Of a stretch of DNA of 64,000 nucleotides, positions 7,470 to 54,829 are shown piece after piece. The notes below the pieces were generated by a model. It did not search any database, was not told where the DNA came from, and saw nothing but the letters and a program-made list of their open reading frames with translations. The position numbers were made by a program, and so were the translations under genes. This DNA is from Chiloscyllium plagiosum (taxonomy: Eukaryota): NCBI RefSeq assembly GCF_004010195.1, contig NC_057718.1:72672674-72736673 (forward strand). The letters are read 5' to 3'. Positions within the stretch are counted from its first letter, which is position 1; each line of letters starts with the position of its first letter.

Positions 7470-10035
7470 AGAGCACGATAGACACATGATAGTACAATGA
7501 CGTTGCTATAACAGAAACTTTGCTAAAGAAGGGGCAAAATTGGCAGTTCAATACTCTTGGGTATAGAGTTTTCAGGCAGGAGGGGGAGGGTAGCAGGAAC
7601 AGGGTTTTGGTTAAAGAATTACAGTCATGAGAAGGGATAATATATTAAATGGGTTAGCAAATATTGCTTTGTGGTTTGACTTTGGGAATAAAAATGGAGC
7701 AGTCACACTACTTGGAGTGTATTACAGACTCCCAAATGGTGAGAGGAAGATAGCCGAACATATGTGTAGACAAATTTCTGCCTGTAGGAAGAGAGCAATA
7801 CAGTAAGAGACTTCAACAATCCCAATATCAACTGGGTTTCAAACAATGTAAGAGGCATTGACAGTGACAAATTCATGCACTGTGTCCAGGAATTTCTTCT
7901 TTATAATGACAAGCCCAATGACAGGAGATGCAATTTTGGATTTAGTTTTGTGAAATGAAAATGGCCAAGTGGGTGAAGTGACATTGGCTGACCGTATCAG
8001 GGTTGGTGATCACAGTTTAGTTAGATTCAGTGTTATTACGGAAAAGGACAGAGATAGATCAGGAATTTTAAAAAGGTTTTAATAAGAGAAAGGCAAGTAT
8101 TACAAGACTGAGAAATTATTTAGCTAAGGTGGACTAGGCAGGGCTGATAAAGATAAAATAGTGGTAACCCAGGCACTAAAAAGCAAGATCCTTAGGGCAC
8201 AGAAGAGACATGCTCCCTCCAATAATATGAATGATAGTGCCAAATCTAGACCCCTATGGTTGCCTAGAAAAATAAAGGGGAAGAGTAAACAAAAAAAAAA
8301 AGCTTGTGCTAGTCACTGCAGATAGCATAGAAGTATAAAGTTTAAAAAAAAGGAAATCAAAGAGAGGGCAAGTTAAAAAATTAGCAAGCAACAGAAAAAC
8401 CCAAAAATGTTTTACCAGTATATAAGGACCAAAAGGGTGGTTAAGGAAAACATGGGACCAACAAAAAGGATAATATGGATATAGTAATCCAATGGGAGCA
8501 GTGTGAAATATTGGACAAGATATTGAGAGAGAAAGTATTGGAGGATATGTTGCCAAGGCTGGATAGATTTCTCCCCAGATATTGAAGGGGATAGCAGATG
8601 CTCGGAGGATTATTTTCCAATCTTCACTAGACACAGGTGAGGCAGCTAAGGACTGGAGGAATCTAAATGTTGTTCTGCTGTTTAAAAAGGGTGCAAAAGG
8701 AAATGGCAAACAATTATAGGCCAGTTAGGTTTACCTTGGTTGTGGGCTAATTGTTAGAATAAATCCTGAGAGATTCAAGCAACTGTCACTTAGAAAGACA
8801 TGGACTAGTCAAAGATAATCAGCATGGCTTTGTTAAGGGAATTTCATACCTTACAAATTTGATTGAATTCTTTGAGCAAGTTACAAGGATGATTGATAAG
8901 GGTAGTGCAGTAAATGCTGTCTATATGTATTTTGATAAGGCACACTTGTTACTTGTTTTATACAATGAATGATTTGGACTTTAAGTTGGGGGTCACAATT
9001 GGGAAATTTGCAGCAAAAATTGGCCATGTAGTAGATAGTGTAGAAGACAGGTGTAAGCTCCAAAATGATTACGATAAGTTGGTGGAGTCAGCAGCAAAAT
9101 GGCAGATGGAGTTCAATGCTGTTAAATGTGAGGTAATGCATTCAGGGAAATCAAACAGCATACACAATAAATGGGAATGTACTGAGAGAGGTGAGAGATC
9201 ATGGCATGGAAGTGCACATTCCCTAAAAGTGCCAGTACAGGTAGAAAAAATTGTAAAGTAGGTACATGGAATACCCACCTACTTTAGCAAGGTATATAAG
9301 ACAATATTAGGGACATGTTGATGAAACTGGTGAGGTCACAACTGGAGTACTGTGTGCAGTTCTGGTCACCATTTTACAGGAAAGACATAATTGGTCTGCA
9401 GAGAATGCAGAGAAGATACACTAGAATGTTGCTAGGGCTGGAGAATTGTAGCTAGAAGGAGAGACTGGAGGGGTTGGGCTGCTTTCCTTAGAACAGAGAA
9501 GGCTGAGGGAGTGACATGATTGAGGTAGACAAAATTGTGAAGTTGAGAGTAGACAGGAGGCAACTGTTTCCCTTGACAGTGAGTCCAAAAATCAGGGGTT
9601 ATAGATTCAAGTTAAGTGGCATAAGAATTAGAATGAATATGAGGAAAATGTTTTTTTATGCAGATAATGGTAAGTGTCTAGAATTTGATGCCTGTGTTGG
9701 TGGTGGAATAGACATGCAGGAAGCTGGCAGAACACAGCAAACCAGGCAGCATCAGGCGGTGGAGAAGTCGATATTCCCGGCGTAACTCTTCTTTAGGTCT
9801 CATGTTGTGTTCTTCCAGCCTCCTGCCGATATATTGCGGATTCCATCATCTGCAGATTTTTTGTCTCTAACGGAGTTGGTGGTGGAGGCAGAGATCCTAA
9901 GCTCTTTTAAAAGGTATCTGTAACTGCACCTTAAGTGCTGTAAGGTGCAGGGGATTAGAAAGGACATCTGGTATCTTTGGGTTGGCTTAGACAAATGGCC
10001 CCCTTCTGTGTGGTTTCATTTCTATGATTCTATGA
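7470..10035 (+). mobile_element. Decayed CR1 LINE (EN-RT), with internal deletion near 8940
   Basis: ORFs 8914..9261 and 9516..9785 carry CR1 ORF2 C-terminal motifs; ends in a ttctatga-type tail. Confidence 0.85.
9708..9874. mobile_element. Short PLE-related insertion with inverted arms, inside a CR1
   Basis: 12-bp TSD gttggtggtgga (9696-9707 and 9875-9886); arms 9716-9739 and 9803-9826 are 21/24 reverse-complementary. Confidence 0.7.
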
Positions 10036-10458
10036 AGGCATGTATGCCATATGCCTTCTTTATCACTCAATCCACTTGCGTTGCGACTTTCACGGATCCT
10101 GGAACTCTCTCCTGAACAACAGTGTGGATATACCTACATCCCAGTATGCAGTTGTGGTTCAAGAAGGCAGTTCATGCCGCCTTCGCTCGAGCAATTAGGA
10201 ACGGACAATAAATGCTGGCTTATTCAGTAACAGTCACATCCCACGAACTCGTAAGAAAAAACACACAGGCTGCAGTTTATGCTGCAACACAATGAAATTA
10301 GAAACAAGGTAGATATTCACTAATCAGAAGAAATGGTTTTGTATAGTACTGCAACCACTCTACAATGTTATATCAGCCATGTTACTTTATAAATATTGGT
10401 GGCAATGACGTAAGTATAAAGTATTTTCTCATTCTGCATATCATGCATGAGATCTTAC

Positions 10459-11077
10459 CGGTTTCTGATTTATTGCTATGGGCTGAAGATGCTAGACTTC
10501 CTTCTGCAATGTAAACAGGAAAACTGGAACATTCAAAGAAAAGCTGGCATGCAGCAGTGAATGCATGATGATAGTCTTTTGAATTCTGTTGTTGCTCTGT
10601 TGTTTGAAATGTTGCATCACCTTGGTCACCAAGGTCACTGCCACTAGTCTGGCATCTGTCTTTGCACAAATCCATCTGAAATCCTGTTGCAAATGCCCGG
10701 CAAATAATTTCATTGGGAATAATATAAAGAGTAATAAACTGGGTCAAAAACTGCTCAAAGTACTCCAGACAATACTGCATTGTTGTCTTTTGAGAAGTAC
10801 CCACAGACACAGCCACTTTAGCCTCTTGGGATCTTGATGATGGTATCATTGTGTCTTCAGACCCAATGGTGGAAGCAGTTTCCGTTTCTGAGGCAGCACT
10901 GCCCTGTGGCAATAACCCAGAATCCTGACTCTCACCTAGTACTTTGTCAATGTCATCATTCTTGTCGGCCTGATACTGCACAAACTCTGTAAAACCACTT
11001 TCAGATGACTGACTGCTAGGAGGATTTTCACCATCTTCAAACACATCACCAGAAGTCCCAAGATTGGATGATGAAAT
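10459..11077 (-). CDS. DOP1A: DOP1A coding exon (619 nt): ISSSNLGTSGDVFEDGENPPSS...AACQLFFECSSFPVYIAEG...SET
   Basis: Lies within ORF 10382..11095; acceptor tttaaacag| and donor ACCG|gtaaga. Confidence 0.95.
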
Positions 11078-12271
11078 CTGTTTAAAAGAAATCAACTGAT
11101 TGAAAATCTAAAAAAGATAATTTTCAAAATAAAATTTTCTGATCGATGCAATTCTGCAATGAAAATTTAATTTTTGAGATATCCCACTTCTTGAGTGGAC
11201 AAGTTCCCTAGAAGATGCTTCAAAGATAACAAGTGCATCAGTTAAAGCTATTTTATTTTTCTTACATCTTTATGACTCTCTGACTCTACTAGAATTTCAT
11301 TGCAATAATCATGCATCATAAAGTAAAGGTAATGATGGTGTTCTAGTATGAAGTACTTTTTAAGTTCATCAGAATTTTCTTTCTTGGTGTGGTAAAATTA
11401 ATACTATAGCCCATATGAAAACCACACAATCAATATGACTAGTATCATTGTTGATGACATCTTTTGAGCAAAAAATGTCAGGGATTATAAAATCTGACAA
11501 GGACACTTCCTGATTACTGAGTACTTTCAGCTGTTGTTGTTTAGGTTTCAGATTTGTAGCAGCAAAATTTTAACTTTGAATCTATTGTTACCCAACTATT
11601 GCAGTATGCTTTGCCAAAAACATCACAAATCCCACTTTCCTTCTTACCATTTGCTGCCCTCCTCCACCAGCCCATACAGTTCCCTGTGATATTCTGGGAC
11701 ATTATTCATGATCAAGACTTCTGGCAAACATCTGATTTATTTCAATAAAACAGGAGCCATTTGTAACAAAAGTGAAAGCTTCTTCTAGGTTAACATTGCC
11801 CTTACGTAAAACACAGAAACTTAAAAAAAGACTTGTTGGGTATATTCAGAGAAATGCTGAAATATCTAAACCAGAAAAAAAGGGTTTCAGTAAGTTAATC
11901 TCAACCTAGGGGAGCAATAGGGTTGCTATCATCAGCCTCACTGCCACTGGATTGGTGGTAAAAGGGAGATCAAGTTGGGTTCCTGTTCTGATCCACTAAA
12001 AAGTATTATGAAAGCCCAAAAGTAAGGAAGTTCCAATCTGTTATTGGACTGCCAAGGATCATTCTACTTGTAATTTGTAGAATTTTTAATATTGGGGGTG
12101 GGCTGTGATTTCTTAATTTAATCCTGCTCTCAATTCAATATTGACCCCAGTTTACATTGTGTGAATGTGCCTTTTTTTGGACATTAGGATCATGAAAAAA
12201 GTTCAACACTACATTCAAACTAACATTTAATCAAAACTGCATCAAAACACACAACAGAAAAATACATGTAC

Positions 12272-12779: not shown

Positions 12780-15700
12780 GGAGTGTCATGGACTTCATAC
12801 AGCACAGAAATAGATCGGTGCAACTCGTCCAGATATCCTAAACTGATCCAGTCCCATTTGCCAGCATTTGGCCCAAATCACTCTAAACCCTTCCTATTCA
12901 TGTACCCATCTAGATGCCTTTTAAATGTTCTAATTGTACCTGCCTCCACCAATTCCTCTGGCAGCTCATTCCATACGTGCACCACTCTCTGCATGAAAAT
13001 GTTGCCACTCAGTTCCCTTCTAAGTCATTCCCCTCTCAGCTTAAACCTATGCTGTCTGGTTTGGGATCCCCTACCCTGGGGAAAAGACCTTGGCTATTCA
13101 CCCTATCCATGAACCTGTGTCCCCTAGTTCATCTCCACCCTAGGAAAAAGCCTCATACTTTCCGCTCTATCCATGCCATTCACAATCTTATGAACTTCTA
13201 TCAGGTCGCCCATTAACCTCATTGCTTTCCAGTGTAAACAAATTTAGTCTATCCAAACTTTCTTCATAGCTAAAATTTGCTGTAACAAGCAACATTCTGG
13301 TGAACCTTTTCTGTATCCACTCCAAAGCGTCAAACATCCTTCTGGTAGTGTGGTGACCAGAACTGCACATAATATTCCAGATGTGGCCTCAGTGAAGTTA
13401 ACCTAGAACAGTACAGACCCTTCAGCCCTCGATGTCTTGCCGACCTTTTATCCTAGTCTAAGATGAAACTAATATACAAATCCTTCATTTTGTTATCATC
13501 CATGTGCCTATCCAACAGTCGCTTAAATGACTCTCACATATCCGACTCTACTCCCACTGCTGGCAGTGCTTTCCACACACCCACCCCTCTCTGTGTAAAG
13601 AACATCTCCCCTGAACCTTCCTCTAATCACCTTAAAATTATGCCCCCTTATGATAGCCATTTCCACCCCTGGAAAAACTCTGGCTATCCACTCTATGCCT
13701 CTCATAATCTTATACACTGCTATCAAGTCACCTCTCGTCCTTCCTTGCTCCAATGAGAAAAGCCCTAGCTCCTTCATTCTTTTTCCATAAGAATGACCTC
13801 CTGACCAGGCAGCATCCTGGTAAATCTCCTCTGCATCCTCTCTAAAGCTTCCACATCCTTCCTATAATGAGGAGACCAGGATGGAATACAGTATTCCCTG
13901 TGTGGTCTAACAGGGCTTTGTAGAGCTGCAGCATAACCTCGCGCTCTTAAACTCAATTCCCCTGCTAATGAAAGCCAACACACCATACGCCTTCTCAACA
14001 ACCATATCAACTTGGGTGGCAACTTTGAGGGATCAATGGACGTGTACCCAAAGATCCCTCTGTTCCTCCACACTGCTAAGAATCCTGCCTTTAACCCTGT
14101 AATTTTCATTCAAATTCGAATTTCCAAGATGAATCACTTCTCAGGCCAATTCTGCATCCTGTCAATGTACCGTTGCAACCTACACCAAAGCCACTACACT
14201 ATTCACAATTCTATCAACGTTCGTGTCATTGGCAAACTTACTAGCCCTCCCTTCCAGTTCCTCATCTAAGTCATTTATAAAAATCATAAAGAGCAGAGGT
14301 CCCAGAACAGATCCCTGTGGATCACCACTGGTCACAGAGCACCAGGCTAAATATTTTCCACCTACTGCCACCCTTTGTCTTCTATAGGCCAGCCAAATCT
14401 CCCTGTATTCCATGCCTCCTTACTTTCTGAATGAGCATATCATGGAGAACTTCATCAAACACCTTTCTAAAATCCATATTACATCACATCCACTGCTCTA
14501 CCTTCATCAATGTGTTCATCAAGTCATCAAAAAATTCCATAAGGTTTGTGAAGCATGCCTTGTCCTGACAAAGCCATGCTGATGATCTCTAATCAAATTA
14601 TGCTTTTCCAAATAATCATAAATCCTGCCTCTCAGAATCCTCTCCGTGAGCGGCACGGTAGCACAGTGGTTAGCACTGCTGCTTCACAGCAGCAGAGACC
14701 CGGGTTCAATTCCCGCCTCAGGCGACTCTCTGTGTGGAGTTTGCACATTCTCCCCGTGTCTGCGTGGGTTTCCTCCGGTTTCCTCCCACAATCCAAAAAT
14801 GTGCAGGTTAGGTGAATTGGCCATGCTAAATTGCCCGTAGTGTTAGGTGAAGGGGTAAATGTAGGAGAATGGGTCTGGGTGGGTTACGCTTCGGCGGGTC
14901 GGTGTGGACTTGTTGGGCCGAAGGGCCTGTTTCCACACTGTAAGTAATCTAATCTAAGTAATCTAATCTAATCTAATAATTTGTGAACCACTAATGTTAA
15001 GACAGATAGGTCTGTAATTCCCAGCATTATCCCTATTCCCTTACTTGATCAAGGAATAACATTTGCTACCTTCCAATCATCTGGTACTACACCACTGGAC
15101 AGTGAGGACACAAAGATCATCACCAATCTTTTCCTTCACTTCCCATAGTAACCTTGGGTGTATCCTTTTTGGCCCAGGGGACTTAACTATTCTCATATTT
15201 TTTCCAAAATATCCAGCCCATCCTCTTTCTTAACACCAACCTGTTCGAGCATATCAGCTTGCTTCATGCTGTCCTCACAAATGACAAGATCCCTCTCTGT
15301 AATGAATATTGAAGCAAAGTATTCATTAAGGATCACCCCTACCTCCTCCAACTCCAGGCACAAGTTCCCTCCACTATCCCTGATCATCCCTATCCTCTTA
15401 TTCCTCATATATGTGTAGAACACCTTCGGGTTTTCCTTAATCCTACCCACCAAGGCTTTCTCATGACCCCTTCTAGCTTTCCTAAGTCCATTCTTCAGTT
15501 TCTTCCTGTCAACCATGTAACCCTCTAGAGCCCTGTCTAAATCTTACCTTCTCAACCTTAAGTACGCTTCCTTCTTCTTCTTAACTAGATGGATGCTTTT
15601 GAGAGGGTGCAGAGAAGGTTTACGAGGATGTTGCTTGGTATGGAAAGCTATGAAGAGAGGTTGAGTAGGTTAGGATTGTTTTCATTAGAAAAAAGGAAAT

Positions 15701-17029: not shown

Positions 17030-20000
17030 CAAGTTCTATAAAGCTGCAGTATAACTTGCCTATCCTTTTAATCAATGCCACTTCCAACGAAGGCAAGCAT
17101 GCCATAAGCCTTTTTTTACAATCTTTTCTACCTGCACTGCCACCTTAAGTGATCTGTGGATCTGCACACTCAGATCCTCTGCATATCAATACTCCTAAGG
17201 GTTCTGCCATTCAATGTATAGTTTCTACTTGTAATTGACCTTACATTTGTCCAGATTAAACTCAGTCTGCCATTTTTCTGCCTGTGCCTCCAAGTGATCT
17301 ATTTCCTGCTGAACCCTCAGACAACCTTTCTCACTATCTGCAACTCCACCAACATTTGTATCATCGACAAACTTACTAATTCAGCCAGCCACTTTTTCCT
17401 CCCAATCATTTATGTCGAGCACAAACAGCAGAGATCCCAGTACTAATCCCTGTGACATATTGCTGTTAGAACCCTCCATTCTGAAAAACATCCTTCCACT
17501 GCTACACTCTGTCCCCAATAACTACATCAGTTTTGTATCCATCTTACTAGCTCAGCCCTAATACCATGCAACTTCACCTTTTGTACCAGTCTACCATGAG
17601 GGACCTTGGCAAAGGCATTACTGAAGCCCATGCAGACATCAACAGCTTTTCCCTTGTCAAATCACCTTCATAACCTCTTCAAAAACTTCATCAAGTTAGT
17701 GAGGCATGACCTGCCCTGCACAAAACCATGTTGTCTATTGTTAATAAGTCAATTTGCTTTGAAATGCATATAGATCTTGTCCCTGAGAGTCTTTTCCAAT
17801 AATTTCACACACCACTGACAAGAGGCTCACAAGCCTGTAATTTTCATGGTTATCCCTGCTACCCTTCTTAAACAATGAGACAACACTGGCTATTCTCCAG
17901 TCTTCTGGGACCTCACCTGTGGCCAAACAGGGTGCAAAGATGTCTGTCAATTTGTTCTCTTGCCTCCCACAATATTCTGGGATGGACCCCATGAGGACCC
18001 ACAGACTTATCTACCTTAATACTGTTTAGCAAGTTAGAAACTCAACACACTCTTCCCTGAGATCATGTTCTACCAATTCCTTCTCTTTGGTGACTAACAA
18101 AATATTCATTTCGGACCTCACCCATCTCTTTTGGCTTCACATATAGATTCCCTCCTTTATTCTTGATTGGGCCTCATTCCTCAAGAAGGGCTCTGGCCCA
18201 AAATGTTGATTTTCCTGCTCCTCAGATGCTGCCTGACCTATTGTGCTTTTCCAGCAACACACTCTCAACTTGAGTGGGCCAACCCTTGCCCTGGCTACCC
18301 TCTTGCGTTTTATAGATGTATAAAAAGCCTTGGGATTCTCCTTAATCCTGTTGGCTAATGACTTTTCATGATCCTTTTTAGTCCTAATTCCTGGTTATGT
18401 TCTTTCCTACTGTCCTTATATACTTCAAGGACTTGGTCAGTTCCCTTCCTTTTAGACCAAGGTCATAACATCCTGGTCATCAAAGATTCACATAACTTGC
18501 CATATCTATCCTTCATTCTCGCAGGAACATACCACTCCTGAACTCATATCAACTGTCGTTTGAAATACTCCCATATATCCAATATAATTTACCTTCAAAC
18601 TGTTGCCTCCAATCAACATTCTCCAGTTCCTGCCTAATATTGTTGTAATACACCTTTCCCCAATTTAAAAACTTCACATGAGGACTGCTGTTATCCCTAT
18701 CCATAAGTACATTAAAACACACTATATTATGCTCACTACTCCCGAAATGCTCCCCCCTACTGAAACTTCTCTCATCTGGGCAGGGTCATCACCCAAAACC
18801 AGGTCCAGTATAACCCCCTACTGGTTGGAATATTTACATACTGTGTCAAGAAACCTCCTTAATGGTCCTTACAAATTCTATCATCGAAGTCCCCAGCATG
18901 AAGTGAGTCCCAGTTAATTTTGGGGAAGTTAAAACAATCCTATGGTTTTTACATCTTTCCAAAATCTGTCCATACATTCCCCTCTATCTCCCGCTGGCTG
19001 CTGAGAAGCCTGTGGTGTACCCCTAGCATTCTAATTTCATCTTTTCTGTTTCTGAGATCTACCTATATTATTTCGCTGCACAAGTCCTCTGAAATAACAC
19101 CCTCAGTACATCTGAGAGATATTCCTTAACCAGTAATGCAACTCTTTCACCCATTTGACATCCCCTTCTTCCACATCTGAAACATCTAACTCTTGCAACA
19201 TTCAGTTGCCAGTCTTGTCCCTCTTTCAGCCAAATCTCCATAATTACAATAATGTCATAATTCCAAGTACTAAGCAAAGCTCTTAATTCATCTACCTTGT
19301 ATATTATATTTCTCGCATTGAAACATATGCATTTCAGACCAAATCCCCTGCTCATTTCAGCAGCGTTTCCCTGCCTGTTATTGTTCTTAGGCATATTTGC
19401 CTTGGTTTCTACCTCTCCCTCAATTTCTGCATCCACTGCCCGACTCCTTTACTTCACACCCTCCTGTTGTACTAGTTTAAACCCTGCCCTACCAATCTAC
19501 CAAGTACTCTATCAAGGAGATCTTTCTCGGTCCTGCCTCACCTCCCTCACAACCGGTCCCAATGCCCCACGAATCTGATACCCGCCCCCCCCACCCCATC
19601 TTTTCAGCCATGTGTTAATCCGATATATACTGTTGCTTTTATTCTGACTAGCTCATGGCACTGGTAGTAATCTGGAAATAACTACCTTTGAGGTCCTACA
19701 TTTCAACTTTCTTTCTAATTTGCTATATTCTGCTTTTAGGACCTCAACCCTTTTTTTTGTACTTACATTGTTACTACCAATACGTACTAGGACAACTGGC
19801 TATTCACCCTCTCCCTCCAGAATACCCTGCAACTGTTCCAAGACATCCAGGAGTAGCACAAGGGATGCAACACCATCCTGGACTCTCGTTTGCGGCCACA
19901 GAAATCCCCTACAAGTATACCATCTGCATGCTGATTTCTCCCTCACTCTGCAGCAGAGCCAACCATGGTACCTTGAATTTGGCTGCTGCTGTTATCCAGA

Positions 20001-21900: not shown

Positions 21901-22706
21901 GTGTCTCTCACCATGGACATCCAGTCCCTCTATACCTCCACCCGCCATGACCAAGGCCTCCAAGCCCTCAGTTTCTTCTTTTCCCGACGTCCCCACCAGT
22001 ATCCTTCCACTGACACGCTTATTCTTTTGGCTGAACTGGCCCTCACCCTCACCAATTTCTCCTTCCAATCCTCCCACTTCCTCCCGGTGTATTTGTCGGC
22101 TATGTAGAACAGTCCATCTTCCGGAGTTACACCGGCACCACTCCCCACCTCTTCCTTCGCTCCACAGTTCATCAACTTCACCAACACATTTCACCCAGAC
22201 CTTAAATTCACCTGGACCATCTCTGATACCTCCCTCCCCTTCCTAGACCTCTCCATCTCCATCCATGAGGACCAACTTAACACTGACATTTTTTTTTACA
22301 AACCCACCAACTCCCACAGCTACCTGGGTTATACCTCTTCCCACCCTACCTCCTCCAAAAATGCTATCCTGTATTCCCAAATCTTCTGCCTCTGCCGCAT
22401 CTGTTCCCAGGAGGACCAGTTCCACCACAGAACACACCTGATGGCCTCTTTCTTTAAAGACCAAACGATCCCCTCCCACATCACTGAAGATGTCCTCCAA
22501 CGCATCTCATCCACGTTCTGCAGTCCCTTCTCCCCACCCCTATTTATCTCGCCATCTCCAAGGCTCCCAGCCTCATTCCTGATGAAGGACTCCAGCCCAA
22601 AACGTCAATATTTCTGCTCTTCAGATACTGCCTGACCTGCTGTGCTTTTCAAGCAACACACACTCAACTCTGATCTCTAGCATCTGCAGACTTCACTGTC
22701 TCTCAG
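21901..22706 (+). mobile_element. Internally deleted Penelope-like element (RT fragments plus 3' end)
   Basis: PLE RT motifs TMDIQSLYTS, LPFLDLSI and YKPTNSHSYL..SSHP; same family as 40561-41600; degenerate hammerhead at ~22575-22610. Confidence 0.88.
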
Positions 22707-25256: not shown

Positions 25257-25296
25257 GCAAACGTTTCGTCCCCTGGCTAGGCGACATCATCAGTGC
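25257..25296 (-). ncRNA. Minimal type I hammerhead ribozyme motif in Penelope 3' end
   Basis: Minus strand reads GCA CUGAUGA U GUCGCCU-AGCC-AGGGGAC GAAAC GUU UGC: stem I GCA/UGC, complete core, 6/7-bp stem II, 1-bp stem III extension within palindrome AAACGUUU. Confidence 0.8.
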
Positions 25297-25308
25297 TTGG
25301 GAGCCTCC

Positions 25309-25461
25309 NNNNNNNNNNNNNNNNNNNNNNNNNNNNNNNNNNNNNNNNNNNNNNNNNNNNNNNNNNNNNNNNNNNNNNNNNNNNNNNNNNNNNNNNNNNN
25401 NNNNNNNNNNNNNNNNNNNNNNNNNNNNNNNNNNNNNNNNNNNNNNNNNNNNNNNNNNNNN
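25309..25461. other. Assembly gap (N run)
   Basis: Run of N inside a young Penelope copy. Confidence 1.
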
Positions 25462-26964
25462 TTTGCTCATGTTGGGTATCGGGTCTTTCGTTCTGGCGAG
25501 TTGTTGTCTGAGCGTGGCTGTTGGTTTGTGTGCCGTTATGAGTCCTAGGGGTCGCAGTAGTCTGGCAGTCAGTTCCGAGATGCTCCTGATGTATGGTAGT
25601 GTGGCTAGTCCTTTTGGTTGTGGTATGTCCTCGTTCCGTGGTCTTTCTCTTAGGCATCTCTTAGGCATTTATTTAGTATCTTCCCTATCTAATGTACTCC
25701 ATAGAGATGGCCTTGTTGATCTTTAAATGCCCTATTCCCTCCTAGTTACTTTTTTGCCCTTAATGTATTTGTAGAATCTACTTGCCGAAAATCTCATATC
25801 ACCTTTTTGCCCTCGCAATTTCCCTCTTAAGTATGCTCCTACTGCCCTTCTACTCCTTCAGGGATTCACTCGATCCCAGTTGTCTGAACCTGACATCCAA
25901 CCCCTTCTTTTTCTTAACCAGAGCCTCGATTTCTCTAGTCATCCACATTTCCTCCAAGTACCAGCCTTGGCCATTCGCACTAATAGGAACATGCTATCTC
26001 CGAATTCTCGTTACCTCATTGCTGACTATTTCCAGCATTGCTTTTTTAAAATTTGATTTCCAGCGCCTGCAGTATTTTGCTTTGTTTATAAATTCATTAA
26101 AACTGAGAGACTCTTGCCAATTTAAAAACAATTTTCGATGCCATGTCTTGCGACTTCTATCCTTGCAGAAGAATGAAGATACTTCCAGCCATAAATGGAG
26201 CTGTATAACATTGAGTGGGCAAAGTTACTACCATTCTTCTGAGGTGGCACAATGGGCCACCTCTGTTCATAAAAAAACAGAAATGTTCTATATTTCATAG
26301 CCCAAGTAAGTCGGAGGATTATTAATATAAAAAAATAGAGGTTACTCTTGCAGAACCATTCAAATATCATAAGTTAGGGAACCATTCATATGGATTTTGA
26401 CATTAAATCTTTAGCAAAATATTGCATAAAATTCTCCTTCTTCTGAATGCTGCAATTCCATGGGAATACAAATTGTTTGCAGATCCTGTTATAATGATGT
26501 CCAGTTGTGTAACTAATACTCTAACTGCACAAAACTTTTTTTTCTTAAAAATTCAGGCTATTGTGAATGTGGGTTGCTTTTAAGACAATTAAACTCTAGA
26601 CAGCTGCAGTATCAGCAGGTTTCTGTCAACATCAAGAACATTAATGTCATCAAAACCTCTGTGCAAATAAAACTAATTCTTTTGGTCAGGTGTGTTGGTA
26701 AGTTTCTTCCATGGCACAATGCTAAAATGTTTTTCTTAATTTCAGATAACACCTTGGGACATTTTGATTTTAAAAACACTATTTAAATGCAATTTACTGT
26801 TGGCAAAAGCGAAGGCCAGTAATGTGCATGCAGAAATTGGGCGTAATGTTTTTAAAAATTTTGGGTTCCCAAACCCTCTTCAGAACTACATGCAATGACA
26901 CAACTTTCAGTTTTTAGCAAGCAGAACGATTAAATGGAATGATATGATGTGAGGAATCGCATAC

Positions 26965-28464: not shown

Positions 28465-29910
28465 CTTTAAAACTGGATGGCTTTGAGGTATGTAGAGAAG
28501 AGGTGTTGGAAATTCTGCAAAGGGTGAAAATAGATAAGATTTATCCTAGGATTCTCTGGGAAGCAAGGGAGGAGATTGCAGAGCCATTGGCCTTAATTTT
28601 TAAGTCCTCGTTGTCTACAGGAGTAGTGCCAGAAGATTGGAGGCTAGTTCAAGAAGGGGAGTAGGGATAACCCTAGTAACTATAGGCCGGTGAGTCTCAC
28701 TTCTGTTGTGGGCAAAATCTTAGAGAGAATTGTAAGGGATAGGATTTATGAACATCTGGATAGGAATAATGTGATCAAGGATAGTCAGCATGGTTTTGTG
28801 AAGGGCAGGTCGTGCCTCACAAACCTTATTGAATTCTTTGAGAAGGTGACTAAGGAGGTGGACGAGGGGAAAGCAGTAGATGTGGTGTATATGGATTTTA
28901 GTAAGGCGTTTGATAAGGTTCCCCATGGTAGACTACTGCAAAAAATACGGAGGTATGGCATTGAGGGTGAGTTGGAGGTTTGGATTAGGAGTTGGCTGGC
29001 TGNNNNNNNNNNNNNNNNNNNNNNNNNNNNNNNNNNNNNNNNNNNNNNNNNNNNNNNNNNNNNNNNNNNNNNNNNNNNNNNNNNNNNNNNNNNNNNNNNN
29101 NNNNNNNNNNNNNNNNNNNNNNNNNNNNNNNNNNNNNNNNNNNNNNNNNNNNNNNNNNNNNNNNNNNNNNNNNNNNNNNNNNNNNNNNNNNNNNNNNNNN
29201 NNNNNNNNNNNNNNNNNNNNNNNNNNNNNNNNNNNNNNNNNNNNNNNNNNNNNNNNNNNNNNNNNNNNNNNNNNNNNNNNNNNNNNNNNNNNNNNNNNNN
29301 NNNNNNNNNNNNNNNNNNNNNNNNNNNNNNNNNNNNNNNNNNNNNNNNNNNNNNNNNNNNNNNNNNNNNNNNNNNNNNNNNNNNNNNNNNNNNNNNNNNN
29401 NNNNNNNNNNNNNNNNNNNNNNNNNNNNNNNNNNNNNNNNNNNNNNNNNNNNNNNNNNNNNNNNNNNNNNNNNNNNNNNNNNNNNNNNNNNNNNNNAGGA
29501 GAGGCTGAGGCACTTGGGGTTGTTTTCATTGGAGAAAAGAAGGTTTAGGGGTGACTTGATAGAGGTGTACAAGATGATTAGGGGTTTAGATAGGGTCGAC
29601 AGTGAGAATCTTTTACCTCGTATGGAGTCAGCTATTACAAGGGGGCATAGCTTTAAATTAAGGGGGGGGTAGGTATAGGACAGATGTTAGGGGTAGGTTC
29701 TTTACTCAGCGAGTCGTGAGTTCATGGAATGCCCTGCCAGTAGCAGTGGTGGACTCTCCCTCATTATGGGCATTTAAGCGGGCATTGGATAGGCATATGG
29801 AGGATAGTGGGCTAGTGTAGGTTAGGTGGGCTTGGATCGGCGCAACATCGAGGGCCGAAGGGCCTGTACTGCGCTGTATTCTTCTATGTTCTACGTTCTA
29901 TGTTCTATGA
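28465..29910 (+). mobile_element. Young 5'-truncated CR1 LINE spanning an assembly gap, nested in an older decayed CR1
   Basis: ORF 28690.. reads SLTSVVGKILE...QHGFVKGRSCLTNLIEFFE...YMDFSKAFDKVPH; (ttctatg)n tail at ~29880-29908. Confidence 0.92.
29003..29496. other. Assembly gap (N run)
   Basis: Run of N inside a young CR1. Confidence 1.
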
Positions 29911-38477: not shown

Positions 38478-38538
38478 AAGTATAGATCAGAGGGATGCTG
38501 GAAAAGCACAGCAGGTCAGGCAGCATCCGAGGAGCAGG
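38478..38538 (-). mobile_element. 61-nt PLE 3'-tail insertion
   Basis: TSD aaacatatca (38468-38477, 38539-38548); matches the sequence just downstream of the hammerhead in 40561-40700. Confidence 0.7.
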
Positions 38539-39164: not shown

Positions 39165-39203
39165 TAATCTAATCTAATCTAATCTAATCTAATCTAATCT
39201 AAT
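39165..39203 (+). repeat. (TAATC)n microsatellite
   Basis: About 8 units directly abutting the SINE 5' end. Confidence 0.9.
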
Positions 39204-39629
39204 ATGATCTAAAATACACTATCTGAAAATGTGGCAGAGACAGATTCAATCTTAGCTTTCAAAAGGAAATTAGAAAAGAACTCCAACAGGAAAAAGTACA
39301 GGGTTATGTCCAGAATACACAGTCAGCATAGACTTACCAGGACAATTTACTGCCTTCTGTGCTGTAATCATCTTAATATTTACTGTAATAATAATATTAA
39401 ACAAAGACCTTCCAGACTATTATGCATCAGTTGTTAAAACCTTTCTTTAAAAAAAAAATGGATCCAATTATTTCTTCATATCAGCAATAGTTGAAAACCT
39501 CAAACATACTTGTACAGTATTATCATTTAGTACAGACCATTAACAAAATCCTACATTCTCAAAAATGCTTTCATGTCTTAAGATTAGCAATAAAATATAA
39601 TATGGCACAATTGTTACACAATTACTTAC

Positions 39630-40465: not shown

Positions 40466-40560
40466 GTTTTTAAGTCAGCAAAAGGTGAGATCCATGGGGC
40501 TTACTAAAATAATAAAGCAACAAGCTTCCATGGTTTTGAACAAACAACAATACTTTATTA

Positions 40561-41600
40561 GGAGAAAGTGAGGTCTGCAGATGCTGGAGATCAGAGATGG
40601 AAATGTGTTGCTGGAAAAGCGCAGCAGGTCAGGCAGCATCCAGGGAACAGGAGAATCGACGTTTCGGGCATTAGCCCTTCTTCAGGAATGAGGAAAGTTG
40701 GTCCAGCAGGCTAAGATAAAAGATAGGGAGGAGGGACTTGGGGGAGGGGGCTCCTCCTCCGACCGTCGGGTTGTTGTGGTTTGGCGGTGGATGAGTCCAA
40801 TGACCTGCATATCCTCGGTGGAGTGGGAGGGGGAGTTGAAATGCTGTGCTACAGGGTGGTTGGGTTGGTTCGTCCGGGTGGCCCAGAGGTGCTCTCTGAA
40901 TCGCTCCGCAAGTAGGCGGCCTGTCTCCCCAATATAGAGGAGGCCACACCGGCTGCAGCGGATGCAGTAGATGATGTGGGTGGAGGTGCAGGTGAATCTG
41001 TGGCGGATATGGAAGTTTCCCTTGGGGCCTTGGAGAGAAGTGAGGGGGGAGGTGTGGGCGCAAGTGTTGCACCTCCTGCGGTTGCAAGGGAAGGTGCCGG
41101 GAGTGGTGGTTGGGTCGGTGGGGGGTGTGGATCTGACAAGGGAGTCGCGGAGGGAGTGGTCTCTACGGACAGCTGATAGGGGAGGGGAGGGAAATATATC
41201 CTTGGTGCTGGGTCTGTTTGGAGGTGGCGGAAGTGACGGCGGATGATGCGCTGTACATGGAGATTGGTGGGGTGGTAGGTGAGGACCAGTGGGGTTCTGT
41301 CCTGGTGGCGGTTGGAGGGGCGGGGCTCAAGGGCGGAGGAGCGGGAAGTGGAGGAGATGCGGTGGAGGGCACCGTCGACCACGTCGGGGGGGAAATTGCG
41401 GTCCTTGAAGAAGGAGGCCATCTGGGATGTGCGTTTTTGGAATTGTTCCTCCTGGGAGCAGATGCGGCGGAGACGTAGGAAGTGGGAGAATGGGATGGCG
41501 TTTTTACAGGGGGCAGGATGGGAGGAGGTGTAGTCCAGGTAGCGGTGGGAGTCGGTTGGTTTGTAGTAGATGTCCGTGTTGATTCGGTCGCCTGAGATAG
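40561..41600 (-). mobile_element. 5'-truncated Penelope-like element (Neptune-type): RT thumb, Cys knuckle, GIY-YIG endonuclease, hammerhead-bearing 3' end
   Basis: Translation gives YKPTDSHRYLDYTSSHP and PLVLTYHP, then after a frameshift GTFPCNRRRCNTC and HIIYCIRCSRCGLLYIGET; 12-bp TSD aatactttatta (40549-40560, 41601-41612). Confidence 0.93.
40655..40688 (-). ncRNA. Minimal type I hammerhead ribozyme motif
   Basis: Minus strand reads UUC CUGAAGA A GGGC-UAAU-GCCC GAAAC GUC GAU: complete core, 4-bp stem II, weak stem I. Confidence 0.72.
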
Positions 41601-41849: not shown

Positions 41850-41950
41850 ACTAAAAGAGAAAATGCTGGAAAATCTCAGCAAGTCTGGCAGCATCTGGAA
41901 GGAGAGAAAAGAGCTGACGTTTCGAATCTAACTGACCCTTTGTCAAAGCT
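41850..41950 (-). mobile_element. Short PLE-like 3'-end fragment (third family) with variant hammerhead at 41912-41950
   Basis: Minus strand reads AGCU UUGACAA A GGGUC-AGUUA-GAUUC GAAAC GUC AGCU, followed by gatgctgccagacttgctgag...ccagca, which resembles the other PLE tails. Confidence 0.65.
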
Positions 41951-45467: not shown

Positions 45468-45882
45468 CTATGAGGAAAAACAGTGAGAAGAGAAAAACTA
45501 ATGGGTTCAACCAAGAGGAAAACACATTGCATGCCAGTGACACTCACAACCCATGAATATATTTAGACATTCTTGAAACTTACTGTGACTTTAAACACCA
45601 GTAAAAACCAAATAGTAATAAAGCAGCATTGTAACTTTGTCCATAAGCATCACATCACCTAAATATAAGAATCTGCTTTTAAAGAAATTTGATAAAGATA
45701 CTCTCCTTTTATGTACACATGTTAAGCTTCAGCCAAATTCTAAAGTCCATGGTGAGAAACTCAGGGAAGTCTCTTGCCCACGCCCTCTTCACTCAGACAC
45801 TCACATGTAATCAAACCCCCATGCGCCTAGCATTATTTTCTCCCAAGACCAGAAACTGAAGTGAGTCATTTCATTGGTAACA

Positions 45883-46014
45883 TTGGTTTCATTGATCTTA
45901 GCCTGCTGGACACACTTTCCTCATTCCTGAAGAAGGGCTTATGCCCGAAACGTCGATTCTCCTGTTCTTGGATGCTGCCTGACCTGCTGCACTTTTCCAG
46001 CAACACATTTTCAG
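45883..46014 (+). mobile_element. 132-nt PLE 3'-end insertion containing an intact hammerhead core
   Basis: 11-bp TSD cattggtaaca (45872-45882, 46015-46025); close match to the reverse complement of ~40590-40715. Confidence 0.85.
45924..45957 (+). ncRNA. Minimal type I hammerhead ribozyme motif
   Basis: UUC CUGAAGA A GGGC-UUAU-GCCC GAAAC GUC GAU. Confidence 0.72.
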
Positions 46015-49701: not shown

Positions 49702-49811
49702 CTGAATCAGGAGGTCCTTGGAAAAGTTATTAAAATAGTAGATTGCATGCTCCTCTGGATTACTATGTCTGGTGCTTCTGGGGCCTATGACACAACCATT
49801 GTTATCAAAAC
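49702..49811 (-). CDS. DOP1A: DOP1A coding exon (110 nt): (G)FDNNGCVIGPRSTRHSNPEEHAIYYFNNFSKDLLIQ
   Basis: Acceptor tttag| and donor CAG|gtatac; phase matches both neighbours. Confidence 0.95.
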
Positions 49812-50599: not shown

Positions 50600-52060
50600 T
50601 TCAAGAGCAAATAAACCTTGTCTTCAACGACATGAAACATTAGTTAGACTGCTTTTGGAGTCAGGTGTGCAATCCTGGTCTTCTTCTCTTAGGCAGAGTA
50701 TATTTGCCATTGTGGAGTGGCTCACCAAGCTGATTCCCAGGATGATGGGACCATCCTGCGAGAAGAGATTGAGGAGTCTGGTCCTGTACTCTCATGAGTT
50801 TAAAACAATGAAAGACCACCTCATAAATTCTTAATGACATAAATAGAATAAGTGTAGAAAGGATTTTTCCCCCAGCTGTGGGATCTAGAACCAAGAACCA
50901 AACAGACTCAGAAAAGAAAGGCAAACCATGTATAAGGTGCAAGACAAGGATGAATTTCTTCACTCGGGGAGTAGTAATTGTTTGTAATTCCTTCCTCCAG
51001 ACACTGTGGAGTTGATTCATTAAGTTCAATTCAGAGATCTACAAACTAACAACATCAAGAGATAAAAGGATACTAAGGGAATATAGCAGTGAGGCAGATG
51101 ATTAGCAATATGGAAATAAAAGTGACTGAGTGATGGGAAATAGAAAATAATGGTCAATGGATGTTTTTCAATTGTTAGGTTTGTAGTGCAGTTCCCCAGG
51201 AGTTGATATCGGGACCTTTGTTAATAATACAGATAGAATTTCCAAGTTTGCAGATGACTCAAAATTTTTGAAGAATTATAAATGGTGAGGAAGATAATCT
51301 GGAACTCCAAAAGGACATTGACAAGTTGGTAGGGTAGGAGGATAGGTAGTGGATGAGGTGTAATGCAGAGAAGAGTGAGGTGACAGAGTTTGATTGGGAC
51401 CACATAAGTTATGGGTATTGTGAACAGATCCATGAAGGTGGCAGCACAAGTGAAGAGAACAGCTGGTAAACTATAAGGTGCCCTCCATTTTATTAACAGG
51501 CGAATACAGCACAAGAATAATGAGGCGATGCTCGCCATAATGCTGAAACCTCTATGAAGCTCTGGTTAGGCCCCAAGTAGACTCTTGTTTCCGATACTAC
51601 ACATCTCACTTTACTAACAAGGTAAGGATCCTTAAGGCAAGAGGAGACTTACCAGAATGGATGAAGGATTTTAGTTGCAAGGATAGGTTTGAAAAGTGGG
51701 GATTTTATTTCTTATAGCAAAGGAGGTTGAGGGAAGATTTAATACAAGTTCAGTATATTATGAAAAACTTAGATAATGTAGCCAAAAATAACTGCTTCCA
51801 TTAGCAGATAAAGACTAGAGGGTTTGGACTAGAGATTAAGGGAGAATGTAAGGAATTATATTGTTACACAGTAAATTAAAATAAACTTGCTGCTCACAAA
51901 AATTGTGGAAGCAAAAGTAGCCAAAGCTTGAAAGGAAACTGGATGAAATCTTGAAGTAACAACCTTGCATGATCAAGCAGAGAAAGTGGGACGGAGGATT
52001 GCTGTGTGGGGAATTGGTTGGTCAGATGGTTTCCTACATTGCTGTAAATGACTATGATGT
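50600..52060 (+). mobile_element. Old CR1-group LINE 3' fragments
   Basis: LVRLLLESGVQSWS, TKLIPRMMG and SKFADD (~51240) remnants. Confidence 0.7.
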
Positions 52061-52269
52061 CATGGAGTGCTTCCTTATGATGAGCAGATAAATGAACTTA
52101 CTTTACTGGAGGAATGTAGGATCCCAGTATTTGAAATACAAACTTTACATCAACATTCACTACATCTCCTTATGGGTTTCATATAAACCTGCCAGTGTTA
52201 AAGCACAGTTGGTGAGCTAAATGCATTTGCTGTTTTAAGTACATGCATATGTGGATGATTCTAACTCAC

Positions 52270-52369
52270 CAAGGAGCCAGGCGTAAAGTCTACGGTTGAG
52301 AGACATATCTCTCCGAAGTACTACGTGTAGAGCTGCAGACAATATCTGGATCATGTCTGGGCGAGTTGC
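52270..52369 (-). CDS. DOP1A: DOP1A coding exon (100 nt): [33 protein letters not shown](G)
   Basis: Acceptor aaatag| and donor G|gtgagt; contains the Dopey signature [16 protein letters not shown]. Confidence 0.97.
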
Positions 52370-54163
52370 CTATTTGGGAAGAAAAAAACCATTTCCAGTA
52401 ATATGGATGATTTAAAGCTGAAAGACATTTGTGCCATTGGAAGAAAATGTTTTATCCATGCTATTTTCTTTGCAAGGTCCTCCCTCCAAATTAATTCACA
52501 CCATCTTTACTGTGCATTCAAGCCAGAGAACTTGAGGACTTAATCTAGGCTGATACTCCAAAAACATCGATGCAAAACTGGAAACGTACATTGCTCGAGA
52601 TTATGTCCTTCAGTATATTAGACTTAAACTGCTTGCCAACACAGGTAAATATTATAACATTATCCTCGATTGGGAAAACATTAACATCAGTATTGTAATC
52701 TACAGACTCAGACTAAAACAAGATGTGGGTTTAAATCCCACCACAAGAACTGGTGCAACTTAAATTCAAATTGATAAAATCTGGATTTGAAAGTCTCGGC
52801 AATTATGATCGGAATATCATTAATTATCATAAAATTCTGTCTGATTCAATGATGTCCTTTAGATAAGATGTGCTTCCCATACTCGGTTTGGCCTACATCC
52901 ATGGCAATGTGGTTGACTCTTAGTTGGCCTCTGCAATGGCCTGGCAGGCCTCTCAAGTTCAGGGCCAATTAGGGAGTGGCAACAAATGCTGGCCATACTG
53001 GCAATGCTCATATCCCATAAAAGAATGACATTCTTTCAGAGCTTGAAGCACAAAGTTCCTTCTATCAGCCATCACAAAGATATTAAACAGTCAGTGTGTC
53101 CAACTAGTGATTACAGGACTTAACAAATGTTTTAAAACTGCCACTATGCCCTTCAAAATCGTAACTGCATCTCAAAAGTTAAATCCAACAATGACTGATC
53201 AAACCATTACAAGGAAATACTTGGTCTACAGCATGAAAACAGATCACTGTTCAGCTACTGGTCTCTGCTACACATGAGTATCCTCCTGCCTTTCTTAATC
53301 CAAATATAAACAGCACATCATTCAATTTCTTTTGACTCTTTCTGCTAGGATGTCCCACATTCTTATCCTTCTTTAGAGAAAGGAATTTCTCCCAAGTTTC
53401 CCACTGGATTTGTGAACAATAATCACTTTCGGCCTCTAGGTACCCTTCAGGGTTCTCTATTCTGTCCATGCAGTTCAACATTTCCGAATAAGTACATCTT
53501 CACAGTTTCAGTATCATCCTTCAACATTAAAGAAAGTGCAAACAAAGTCCCTCCACATCCTTTCTATATTGTAGGAACCAGAACTGTGCCCAGATAAGTA
53601 TGGGTCAATCAACATATAAGATGAATAGGAAATCACTACTTTTAAATTTTATTCCTTTAGAAATGTTTGGTCTGCTTTTCAAAGAAAATTTTCCAACCAT
53701 CTTTGCTATGCTTAACAGTTCCTGTATCTGTGTTCCTTACTTTGTAGACCCATTTAAGCTTATGATCAAAGCAGTACACAGTATCCTTTATCTTCCTACC
53801 GAAACCTACCATCTTAGTTATAGATAATGGAATTTACAAGTTTGCATTAATATCTCATTGTATTTTACTGCAGGAATTCAATGTGGTAAATTTGTGTCAC
53901 CAATTTTATTCACAACATTTTGTAGATGTTTTTGCACTGCATCTTTGAAACACAGAAACATAGGAAACACGAACAGGTATAGGCCATTTGGCCTTGCTCT
54001 GCCATCCAATACGATCATGGCTGTTCATTCAACTCAGTAAAAACAAATACTGTAGATGCTGGAAATCCAAAATAAACACAGAATGCTGGATAAACTCAGT
54101 ATGTCTCGCAGCACCTGTGCAAACAGAAACAGAGTTTCATTCATCTCTGAACTCTGATCCTTT

Positions 54164-54829
54164 TTTGCAAGGTTTGTAGCTCAGGTTGAGGTTTAGGGTA
54201 TAGGTTTGCTCGCTGAGCTGTAGGTTTGATATCCAGACATTTCATTATCTGGCTAGCTAACATCATCAGTGGCGACCTCCAAGTGAAGCGAAGCTGTTGT
54301 CTCCTGCTTTCTATTTCTATGTTTGTCCTGGATGGGGTTCCTGGGGTTTATGGTGATGTCATTTCCTGTTCATTTTCTGAGCGGTTGTTGGATGGTATCT
54401 AGATCTGTGTTTATATGGCATTGTGGTTGGAGTGCCAGGCCTCTAGGAATTCTCTGGCATGTCTTTGCTTAGCCTGTCCCAGGATAGATGTGTTGTCCCA
54501 GTCGAAATGGTGGGTTTTTTTGACTGGGACAACACATCTATCCTGGGACAGGCTAAGCAAAGACATGCCAGAGAATTCCTAGAGGCCTGGCACTCCAACC
54601 ACAACGCCATAAACACAGATCTAGATACCATCTATCAACCCCTCAGAAAATGAACAGGAAATGACATCACCACAAACCCCAGGAACCCATCCAGGACAAA
54701 CATATAAATAGAAAGCAGGAGACAACAGCTTCGCCTCACTTGGAGGTCGCCACTGATGTTTACTAGCCAGGTATGGAAATGTCTGGATATCAAACCTACA
54801 GCTCAGCGAGCAAACCTACATCCTAAACC
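54164..54829. mobile_element. Penelope-type element present as a long inverted duplication of its 3' end
   Basis: Arms ~54190-54503 and 54522-54829 are reverse-complementary; the right arm encodes the GIY-YIG C-terminus FDWDNTSILGQAKQRHAREFLEAWHS...IN; imperfect TSD ctctgatccttt / ctttgatcccttt. Confidence 0.9.
54233..54272 (-). ncRNA. Hammerhead-like motif (slightly decayed) in the left palindrome arm
   Basis: Minus strand reads CCA CUGAUGA U GUUAGCU-AGCC-AGAUAAU GAAAU GUC UGG; the right-arm copy (~54750-54786) has a deletion in the core. Confidence 0.6.

Follow-up and report, generated by a model that had tools for sequence, protein, structure and literature searches.

The hammerhead-like motifs scattered over the stretch of DNA analysed here (the window, 64,000 nucleotides) represent, with a probability that we put at about 85%, minimal type I hammerhead (min-HHR) sequences that lie in the pLTRs (3' repeats) of Penelope-like elements (PLEs) from two lineages, the truncated copies in the introns of DOP1A being likely inert passengers. 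The window represents the DOP1A gene of a carpet-shark-like genome (10460..55787, minus strand), in which nine coding exon blocks (55787-55686, 52369-52268, 49851-49702, 45467-45354, 44689-44567, 39751-39629, ~35830-35765, 12502-12272 and 11083-10460, all minus strand) correspond to amino acids 228-779 of a shark DOP1A; Atlas and PDB searches with a DOP1A exon gave no match. The motif-bearing PLE copies lie in its introns, four core-complete ones in the sense orientation.

All eight motif sites listed in the original prediction are present in the window, and its five exact coordinates proved to be the low-coordinate ends of the motifs; a ninth copy, absent from that list, was found at 54753(+). 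The 12 core positions are all kept in five of the nine copies, four with C3-G8 and one with U3-A8, positions 3 and 17 falling at 45927/45954(+), 40685/40658(-), 41946/41916(-), 25293/25260(-) and 54269/54236(-). The core is broken in the other four copies, by G5>A and A13>G at 9796(-), by G5>C and G12>A at 18180(+), by G12>A at 22579(+) and by a 3-nt deletion at 54753(+). The first three of these are true homologues (nhmmer E 1e-21 to 4e-28, with all three in the search seed). Two weak nhmmer sites, 1337(-) (E 1.3) and 12689(-) (E 0.38), are left out of the counts.

A strict descriptor, comprising the core, a stem II of at least 3 bp, GAAACGUH and a stem I of at least 2 bp, matched four sites, against a mean of 0.0 and a maximum of 0 in 200 local first-order-Markov shuffles; with no demand on the stems, 200 such shuffles gave a mean of 0.03 and a maximum of 1. 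The motif at 54269 matches with a relaxed tail only. An unpaired base stands between 9 and 10.1 in all five core-complete motifs, four of which have G-C at 10.1-11.1 and the palindrome ACGU, without a loop 3, at 15.1-16.1, where 54269 has G.U and AUGU. The motifs carry the features of the published min-HHR consensus, among whose rows are ones with U17, a 2-bp stem I and U3-A8. The original proposal, that minimal type I hammerhead motifs are carried here by PLEs, is borne out. An Rfam scan (E<=10) returned four matches, none a hammerhead. Rfam miRNA matches at 54467-54558 were rejected as an inverted repeat scoring below the gathering threshold.

The motifs had been assigned to at least three unrelated families; shared tails, loop II and ORF point instead to two unrelated PLE lineages with subfamilies. 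Lineage A unites 45927, 40685, 18180, 22579, 9796 and 41946 by one downstream tail, and lineage B unites 25293, 54269 and 54753 by loop II, tail and ORF. Tail scores within lineages exceed those of shuffled tails (subfamilies A-D, 45 versus a shuffled maximum of 27; B-C, 28 versus 23; 0/500 in each case), and cross-lineage scores are at chance level in five of six comparisons, A-B being borderline (2/500). Every motif lies within, or is homologous to, the pLTR of a PLE: for 40685, 22579, 25293, 54269 and 54753 the pLTR directly adjoins an RT/GIY-YIG ORF on the same strand, and for 45927, 18180, 41946 and 9796 the setting is supported by tail homology. Immediately upstream, on the strand of the motif, GIY-YIG and RT pieces match a Chiloscyllium PLE protein at 74%; the lineage-B ORF piece has 85-93% identity to six of its eight hits, the subfamily-C ORF end matches the same proteins at 67-74%, and a lineage-B protein shares 22% identity with a lineage-A protein. 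A CX2-5CXXC linker before the C-terminal GIY-YIG domain is described, in the available text of PMC8557442, for the Neptune and Nematis clades; a CX4CXXC linker is found in the window ORF 40682-41326(-) and in all four lineage-A relatives checked, and no CX2-5CXXC linker occurs in five of five close relatives of lineage B, for which the window's own GIY-YIG start falls in an N gap. We call lineage A Neptune-like and lineage B Poseidon-like, putative names that rest on one linker motif and not on a tree, and prefer Neptune over Nematis because vertebrates carry Neptune and Poseidon.

The stems originally quoted are all present (GCA/UGC, CCA/UGG, AGCU/AGCU, GGGC/GCCC and GGGUC/GAUUC). Stem I is weak in 45927 and 40685 (C-G, U-A, U.U, A-U, that is, 2 bp, a U.U mismatch and 1 bp), has 4 bp in 41946 and 3 bp in 25293 and 54269; 25293 further shows U17 and a G.G mismatch within stem II, and 54269, besides its G.U at 10.1-11.1, has a G.A within stem II and a stem III formed by wobble. 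The covariation that had been claimed for these stems is real, but it stems from just two contrasts rather than many. Between A and D both sides are changed in four of seven pairs, all from a single D row (one sequence) and with only two stem I pairs counted owing to an alignment gap; in D the 3-8 pair and the two inner pairs of stem I are exchanged compensatorily. Between B and C one of three stem I pairs shows compensatory change. At the true register 87.8% of cells are paired, versus 16-42% when slid, and family D reads restore G-C in stem II at 41926 (39/42 RNA reads, 98% of DNA contig depth). Fold prediction yields stem II only, monomers forming no stem III, and for all five motifs the best alternative fold of the dimer is more stable than its double-hammerhead fold, by free-energy models that leave out the tertiary core; none of the five folds better than its own shuffles (z -0.7 to -1.6).

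Among the lineage-A copies, the core-complete motif at 45923..45958(+), antisense to DOP1A, sits in a 132-bp PLE 3'-end insertion (45883..46014, +) with 11-bp target-site duplications at 45872 and 46015. The core-complete motif at 40654..40689(-), sense to the DOP1A pre-mRNA, belongs to the pLTR that follows the RT thumb, CX4CXXC linker and GIY-YIG domain of a 5'-truncated, frameshifted Neptune-like PLE (40561..41600, -), flanked by a 12-bp AT-rich duplication at 40549 and 41601. The U3-A8 motif of subfamily D (41912..41950, -) heads a ~100-bp stub (about 41853-41950) bearing the lineage-A tail, around which no target-site duplication was found. Dead hammerheads occur in a 101-bp stub (18174..18274, +; 6-bp direct repeat at 18168 and 18275), in an internally deleted PLE (21911..22696, +; RT piece 21913-22515, then the pLTR with 22579; 9-bp duplication at 21902 and 22697) and, at 9767-9799, in an old stub of subfamily E with a lineage-A tail (9714..9800, -). 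Two insertions consist of tail only, one at 38478..38538(-), starting about 6 nt past the cut site and flanked by a 10-bp duplication at 38468 and 38539, and a diverged lineage-A-like stub without hammerhead at 54076..54119(-) (nhmmer E 6e-5). In lineage B, the core-complete motif at 25257..25296(-) lies 3' of a PLE ORF piece (25462-25662), from which an assembly gap (N 25309-25461) separates it. The subfamily-C motif at 54233..54272(-), whose AUGU stem III and G.U at 10.1-11.1 represent CpG-type decay, and the second subfamily-C copy (54750..54786, +) belong to two 5'-truncated GIY-YIG ends of Poseidon-like type that are inverted head to head (54190..54829; arms of ~320 bp, 10-nt spacer at 54508-54517), with a hammerhead-bearing pLTR ending each arm; the pair folds as one long hairpin in which 54269 is buried (-580 kcal/mol). 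Over the ten insertions examined, target-site duplications of 9-12 bp were found at four, 6-bp repeats at three and 5-6-bp, chance-level repeats at three.

Under the reading that we favour, the PLE endonuclease would, as inferred from established PLE biology, nick AT-rich DNA, and the reverse transcriptase would start internally, downstream of the hammerhead, and copy the RNA towards its 5' end, so that the pLTR with its hammerhead would usually be part of even the shortest insertions; this would by itself explain why stubs of ~100-130 bp headed by a hammerhead are in excess. In a tandem element that is active, a pair of motifs would join through the ACGU palindrome, as stem III, and through exchanged halves of stem I, and would cut after GUH, probably with help from the element's own protein, trimming a multimeric transcript. 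Purifying selection in active lineages would keep the pairing, as the compensatory changes between subfamilies suggest, and inserted copies would decay neutrally, often at CpG sites. A lone copy, with neither a stem III nor a matching partner on the same transcript, would therefore not cut the host pre-mRNA, and since there is no tandem partner, one copy is locked in the 320-bp hairpin and RNA reads show no loss at the cut, the DOP1A copies are likely inert.

It is possible, if only tentatively so, that the ~100-130-bp stubs are not truncation products at all and form a non-autonomous mobile family, a SINE-like solo retrozyme whose transcription begins at the hammerhead's front edge and which Neptune-like proteins copy. 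In DNA contigs depth over the hammerhead and tail is 5-9 times that over the ORF body, and most lineage-A copies begin near 40689, the 5' edge of stem I, where depth changes from 1287 to 186 reads between 40672 and 40699 and behind which lie 200 loose ends with mixed flanks; position 3 follows the start of the copies at 18174 and ~41950 by 6 and 4 nt, and retrozymes have been proposed to derive from pLTRs. Simple random 5' truncation does not account for this clustering of lineage-A starts in front of stem I. However, over 112 nt the stubs are nearly the same as the ends of copies that bear an ORF (94.6%), and the start lies elsewhere in other copies: upstream by 44 nt (45883), 6 nt beyond the cut (38538) or far inside the ORF. 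No promoter was identified, and Tandem Repeats Finder gave six rows for the window, none covering a motif.

We consider it unlikely that the lineage-A motif is no ribozyme even in the active element and is kept as a protein-binding or promoter element. Its weak stem I, the prediction of stem II alone, the dispensability of the Anolis hammerhead for insertion in vitro and the success of Naiad PLEs that have no hammerhead would all fit such a role, but the motif retains every catalytic position and the ACGU palindrome, its sister subfamily D exchanges pairs compensatorily, and PLE motifs with a 2-bp stem I are already published.

Improbable, too, is a diffuse regulatory layer in which dispersed motifs cut host pre-mRNAs in vivo, as trans-dimers or with help from PLE protein. 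Family reads are abundant on both strands, the core is kept in five of nine copies, protein-assisted cleavage is published for an Anolis PLE, and apparent fused pairs exist at a few loci elsewhere. On the other side, the one informative RNA run (X21; about 2 in 100 of its poly(A) single-cell short reads were covered) gave depths over the cut (40672/40643) of 757/1124 and 530/857 in the two directions, versus a ratio of 0.75 in DNA contigs, and contained no pile-up of read starts or ends at the cut site. This absence of sense-strand read loss is a weak test, with reads pooled over many copies (117/4524 at >=99% identity) and cleaved RNA being open to degradation. Four copies show neutral-looking decay, the stem I halves of 40685 and 41946, neighbours on one strand, do not fit each other, and four core-complete sense copies are tolerated in DOP1A introns. 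Equally hard to credit is the broader proposition that carpet sharks hold the largest vertebrate hammerhead repertoire yet seen (order 10^5) and owe its spread to a short non-autonomous unit with RNA starting at the ribozyme front edge, in which the U3-A8 subfamily, with its firm 4-bp stem I, and fused pairs still cut host pre-mRNAs by PLE protein help or as trans-dimers. Chance matching to a short degenerate pattern, to which the unremarkable folds and the lack of an Rfam hammerhead match might lend colour, can be dismissed given four sites observed versus 0.0-0.03 expected, their fixed place in PLE 3' repeats and the compensatory changes.

Read as hammerhead sequences of two PLE lineages, these motifs extend the published phenomenon to sharks and supply a natural collection of minimal-hammerhead variants, very large and with a vertebrate U3-A8 subfamily among them, that should be useful for asking why PLEs keep a ribozyme seemingly dispensable in vitro. 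From a rough depth ratio the motif likely numbers in the order of 10^5 copies in this genome, which upholds the size of the repertoire that had been predicted; the word ribozyme implies activity, and the RNA reads argue against much cleavage in host transcripts. Most of the short copies begin at the 5' edge of stem I instead of at the cut site, a boundary that may be where the PLE template RNA starts. Cleavage of host transcripts, if shown, would amount to a genome-wide RNA-cutting layer in shark gene regulation; the evidence here points elsewhere.

A generic min-HHR pattern occurs at at least 118 metagenome loci (about 5000 stretches estimated), and among the 128 matches listed positions 3/8 are C-G in 111, U-G in 9, C-A in 5 and U-A in 3, a set that does not back covariation between the two positions; in one U-A case (L039) the change resembles decay within a C3-G8 family, so the variant can arise by chance. 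One family dominates the matches listed, none of which has the shark tail, and the lineage-A tail pattern had no match in viral or metagenome contigs.

Canonical type I hammerheads, as modelled in Rfam, have a real stem III, a 6-bp stem I and a loop 1-loop 2 contact, which the motifs here do not fit. In their short palindromic stem III and dimer model they resemble the small PLE hammerheads that Lunse, Weinberg and Breaker reportedly found in 2016 to cleave as dimers. A literature search, with most subscription papers outside its scope, found no title or abstract start on shark ribozymes and no match for Penelope ribozymes in Chiloscyllium or retrotransposon hammerhead ribozymes in cartilaginous fish. 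Non-LTR retrozymes, reported in one chondrichthyan genome according to the accessible part of the preprint (Li, Clavereau & Pollet 2026, bioRxiv 10.64898/2026.07.22.740005), are likewise non-coding, hammerhead-bearing, pLTR-related short units, but form tandem arrays with at least two complete hammerheads, an arrangement found in none of the copies here. The Poseidon_Ac hammerhead of Anolis carolinensis, as far as the available text goes (Frangieh et al. 2024, PMC11167929), requires protein in order to cleave, is not needed for insertion in vitro and leaves no RNA-seq ends at its cut site; the copies here share that absence of ends, and their elements share with this vertebrate EN+ PLE a pLTR hammerhead upstream of the internal reverse-transcription start and AT-rich targets, whereas Poseidon_Ac is active, tandem and cuts with protein and ours are truncated fragments known from sequence.

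The closest precedent is the set of min-HHRs in pLTRs of metazoan PLEs (Cervera & De la Pena 2014, PMC4209133), where the motif architecture, copies standing alone, pairs set back to back and the U3-A8 swap, with about 1,300 hits in Schistosoma mansoni, have already been described. In the available portions of that paper the motif reads CUGANGA-H-stem II-GAAAN-palindrome-NUH, with the bulge after A9, G10.1-C11.1 and U17 variants, and occurs mostly as solo copies from truncated PLEs; a genome can hold several families, and motifs on opposite strands form pairs separated by 100-700 bp. These traits recur here. In the published motif stem I is short (about 3-5 bp, with 2-bp examples in the alignment), and the motif is inactive as a monomer and weak as a dimer; shark terms were absent from the one supplement file searched. 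Unlike those systems, the host here is a cartilaginous fish, lineage A has a U.U mismatch in stem I, the U3-A8 swap occurs in a Neptune-like vertebrate subfamily, and the likely 10^5 copies, by rough depth ratio, far exceed the published counts of about 4,000 in coelacanth and 9,000 in Xenopus, made by a stricter descriptor.

A descriptor made up of the core CUGANGA or UUGANAA, an optional bulge, stem II, GAAACGUH and stem I matched the window four times, with hammerhead position 3 at 45927(+), 41946(-), 40685(-) and 25293(-), as against none in 200 shuffles (mean 0.0, maximum 0); 54269(-) was matched once the tail of the descriptor was relaxed. Profile search picked up the decayed copies 9796, 18180 and 22579 and also two stubs that consist of the tail alone, and it brought the number of hammerhead-bearing copies to nine with one at 54753(+). 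The original prediction had recognised these motifs correctly as minimal hammerheads of Penelope-like elements (PLEs), real and non-random, and the descriptor scan and stem check showed its coordinates and stem sequences to be exact. All 12 core positions are kept in five of the nine copies (one of them via a U3-A8 swap) and the core is broken in four, several changes hitting CpG sites at 11.1-12 and 15.2-16.2; positions are numbered, and G12 and G8 are assigned their role, as in PMC6155905 (excerpt) and in general usage. As monomers, 0/5 motifs folded more stably than shuffled sequence, and the Rfam search reported no hammerhead in the window, both of which are expected because the motifs have no stem III.

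The hammerheads had been assigned to at least three unrelated families. Tails, loop II and ORFs shared within groups, together with an identity of 22% between the A and B proteins, instead divide the copies into just two lineages that are unrelated to each other and comprise about five subfamilies. The best matches of the PLE protein pieces are Chiloscyllium and Hemiscyllium proteins (74%, up to 93%), which identifies the host as a carpet-shark-like species. In the Neptune-like lineage A, motif 40685 terminates a 1040-bp insertion that contains RT-thumb, CX4CXXC linker and GIY-YIG remnants and is flanked by a 12-bp AT-rich duplication; a linker of this type marks Neptune/Nematis PLEs (PMC8557442, excerpt). 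Motif 22579 ends an internally deleted copy, while 45927 and 18180 belong to stubs of 132 bp and 101 bp. The downstream tail of lineage A is common to 41946 (subfamily D) and 9796 (subfamily E), and the A-D, A-E and D-E tail scores were reached by 0/500 shuffles.

In the Poseidon-like lineage B, motif 25293 lies 3' of an ORF piece with 85-93% identity to six of eight protein matches, and all five relatives checked lack the CX4CXXC-type linker. The ORF seems to run into the hammerhead, as the C-termini of two protein matches (P0067, P0068) agree with what the motif region at 25277-25308(-) encodes. A stretch of a third, P0074, annotated as a Chiloscyllium MAP3K7 isoform, is 87% identical to the lineage-B protein, which we regard as exonisation or an annotation artefact. 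Loop II and tail are common to B and subfamily C (70% over 111 nt, E 1e-7). Both C copies lie in a near-perfect 640-nt palindrome built of two PLE ends (54190-54829), in which the ORF ends of both arms share 67-74% identity with the C-termini of lineage-B relatives; among the 80 positions closest to the centre the arms differ at 1, and in the blocks that follow at 5, 2 and 5. PLE insertion ordinarily leaves short stubs, as well as truncated copies that sit next to each other in inverted orientation. Rfam miRNA matches within the palindrome (54467-54558) were spurious and had it as their source.

The setting is vertebrate DNA (G+C 41%), dense in CR1-type LINE debris with RVT_1 and AP-endonuclease pieces in many ORFs; two tandem arrays of the pentamer TAATC (14941-14980, 39165-39212) are probably LINE 3' tails. 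Assembly gaps interrupt the lineage-B PLE (25309-25461) and a CR1 copy (29003-29496). By tblastn, nine coding exon blocks of DOP1A run from 55787 down to 10460 on the minus strand; one of the exons corresponds to the ORF at 10382-11107(-), whose top match is shark DOP1A (79%). Eight of the nine hammerhead motifs lie between these blocks; 9796, beyond the last block found, is presumably intronic too. Four core-complete motifs are in sense orientation within the introns, and in DOP1A pre-mRNA the palindrome would fold into an RNA duplex of about 320 bp.

Across six lineage-A rows, 87.8% of pairing cells are paired, versus 16-42% in slid controls. Two-sided changes occur at four of seven pairs, a number reached by 10/500 shuffles, and all four are confined to the single D row; B versus C adds one swap, G-C to C-G, in stem I. 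At 41926 in stem II the D family has G-C where the window copy has G.U (39/42 RNA reads). Family reads over this site reach about 41949 on average, and the 40 of 209 read-difference rows listed hold none at 41941 or 41946; from both we consider it likely that U3-A8 is fixed in subfamily D. This swap has been published for Schistosoma (PMC4209133, excerpt). A metagenome family shows that decay, too, can produce U3-A8. Among metagenome contigs, in which at least 118 loci matched a minimal-hammerhead pattern, there is an abundant family whose stems are almost those of D; its core has C3-G8, its tail is unrelated, and its copies frequently form opposite-strand pairs. A Neptune-like ORF end lies within 300 nt at 12 of the 118 loci listed.

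Summed contig depth at 40672 was 5.0 million, versus 5-60 in single-copy bins. Depth ratios, which are not copy numbers proper and are used to order of magnitude only, come to 0.8-7 x 10^5 for lineage A, 1.6-13 x 10^4 for its ORF body and 0.3-2.8 x 10^4 for subfamily D. Published counts for coelacanth and Xenopus are 4,000-9,000 (PMC4209133, excerpt), which the lineage-A estimate exceeds, although our measure is looser; for whale shark, an excerpted source reports PLE expansion in introns. The literature searched, which did not include Lunse 2016, held no report of shark PLE hammerheads, retrozymes in one chondrichthyan aside (bioRxiv 10.64898/2026.07.22.740005, excerpt). PLE minimal hammerheads as a kind are already known; what is added here is the host group and the large copy number.

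Lineage-A copies start mostly at the 5' edge of stem I (~40689), away from the cut site. From 40672 to 40699 depth falls by 86% in RNA and 73% in DNA, and loose ends at this boundary are heterogeneous. Transcripts may start, or be processed, at this boundary. In lineage A a pyrimidine-rich tract at 40711-40730(-) and 45890-45901(+) ends in a splice-acceptor-like AG located 25 nt 5' of position 3; tract and AG may be where the pLTR, the hammerhead-carrying PLE 3' repeat, has its splice acceptor, by analogy with Drosophila Penelope, where an intron ends at helix I (PMC4209133, excerpt).

The evidence on cleavage is indirect and does not support activity of the dispersed shark copies. In 5/5 cases the predicted double-hammerhead fold was less favourable than both the best alternative dimer fold and two separate monomers. 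None of the tandem arrays in the window contains a motif; the same-strand neighbours 40685 and 41946 have ACGU in common and mismatched stem I halves, and 54269 pairs with its own antisense twin inside a 320-bp hairpin. In RNA run X21 (4524 reads with 80% identity or more, most of them from other copies), the lineage-A family is read on both strands, and depth drops across the cut, to 0.67 in one direction and 0.62 in the other, versus 0.75 in DNA. If strands are assigned by the usual rule, ribozyme-sense is the direction with 0.67; under the opposite rule the excess loss would be about 8%. Nowhere do X21 reads show a pile-up of ends. At single-locus depth (15-31), contigs from elsewhere in the genome connect 40688/40689 with 40655 (joint type unspecified), and in 16 X21 reads with 12 different starts 40678 is connected with 40689 on the opposite strand. 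We take the joints at 40655-40689 to be rare fused hammerhead pairs at other loci, candidate natural dimer substrates. Minimal hammerheads have been described as inactive monomers and weak dimers (PMC4209133, excerpt), and a lizard PLE hammerhead as cutting only with the PLE protein, leaving no RNA-seq ends, while insertion in vitro proceeds without it (PMC11167929, excerpt). The RNA-read and fold results from the shark are consistent with both.
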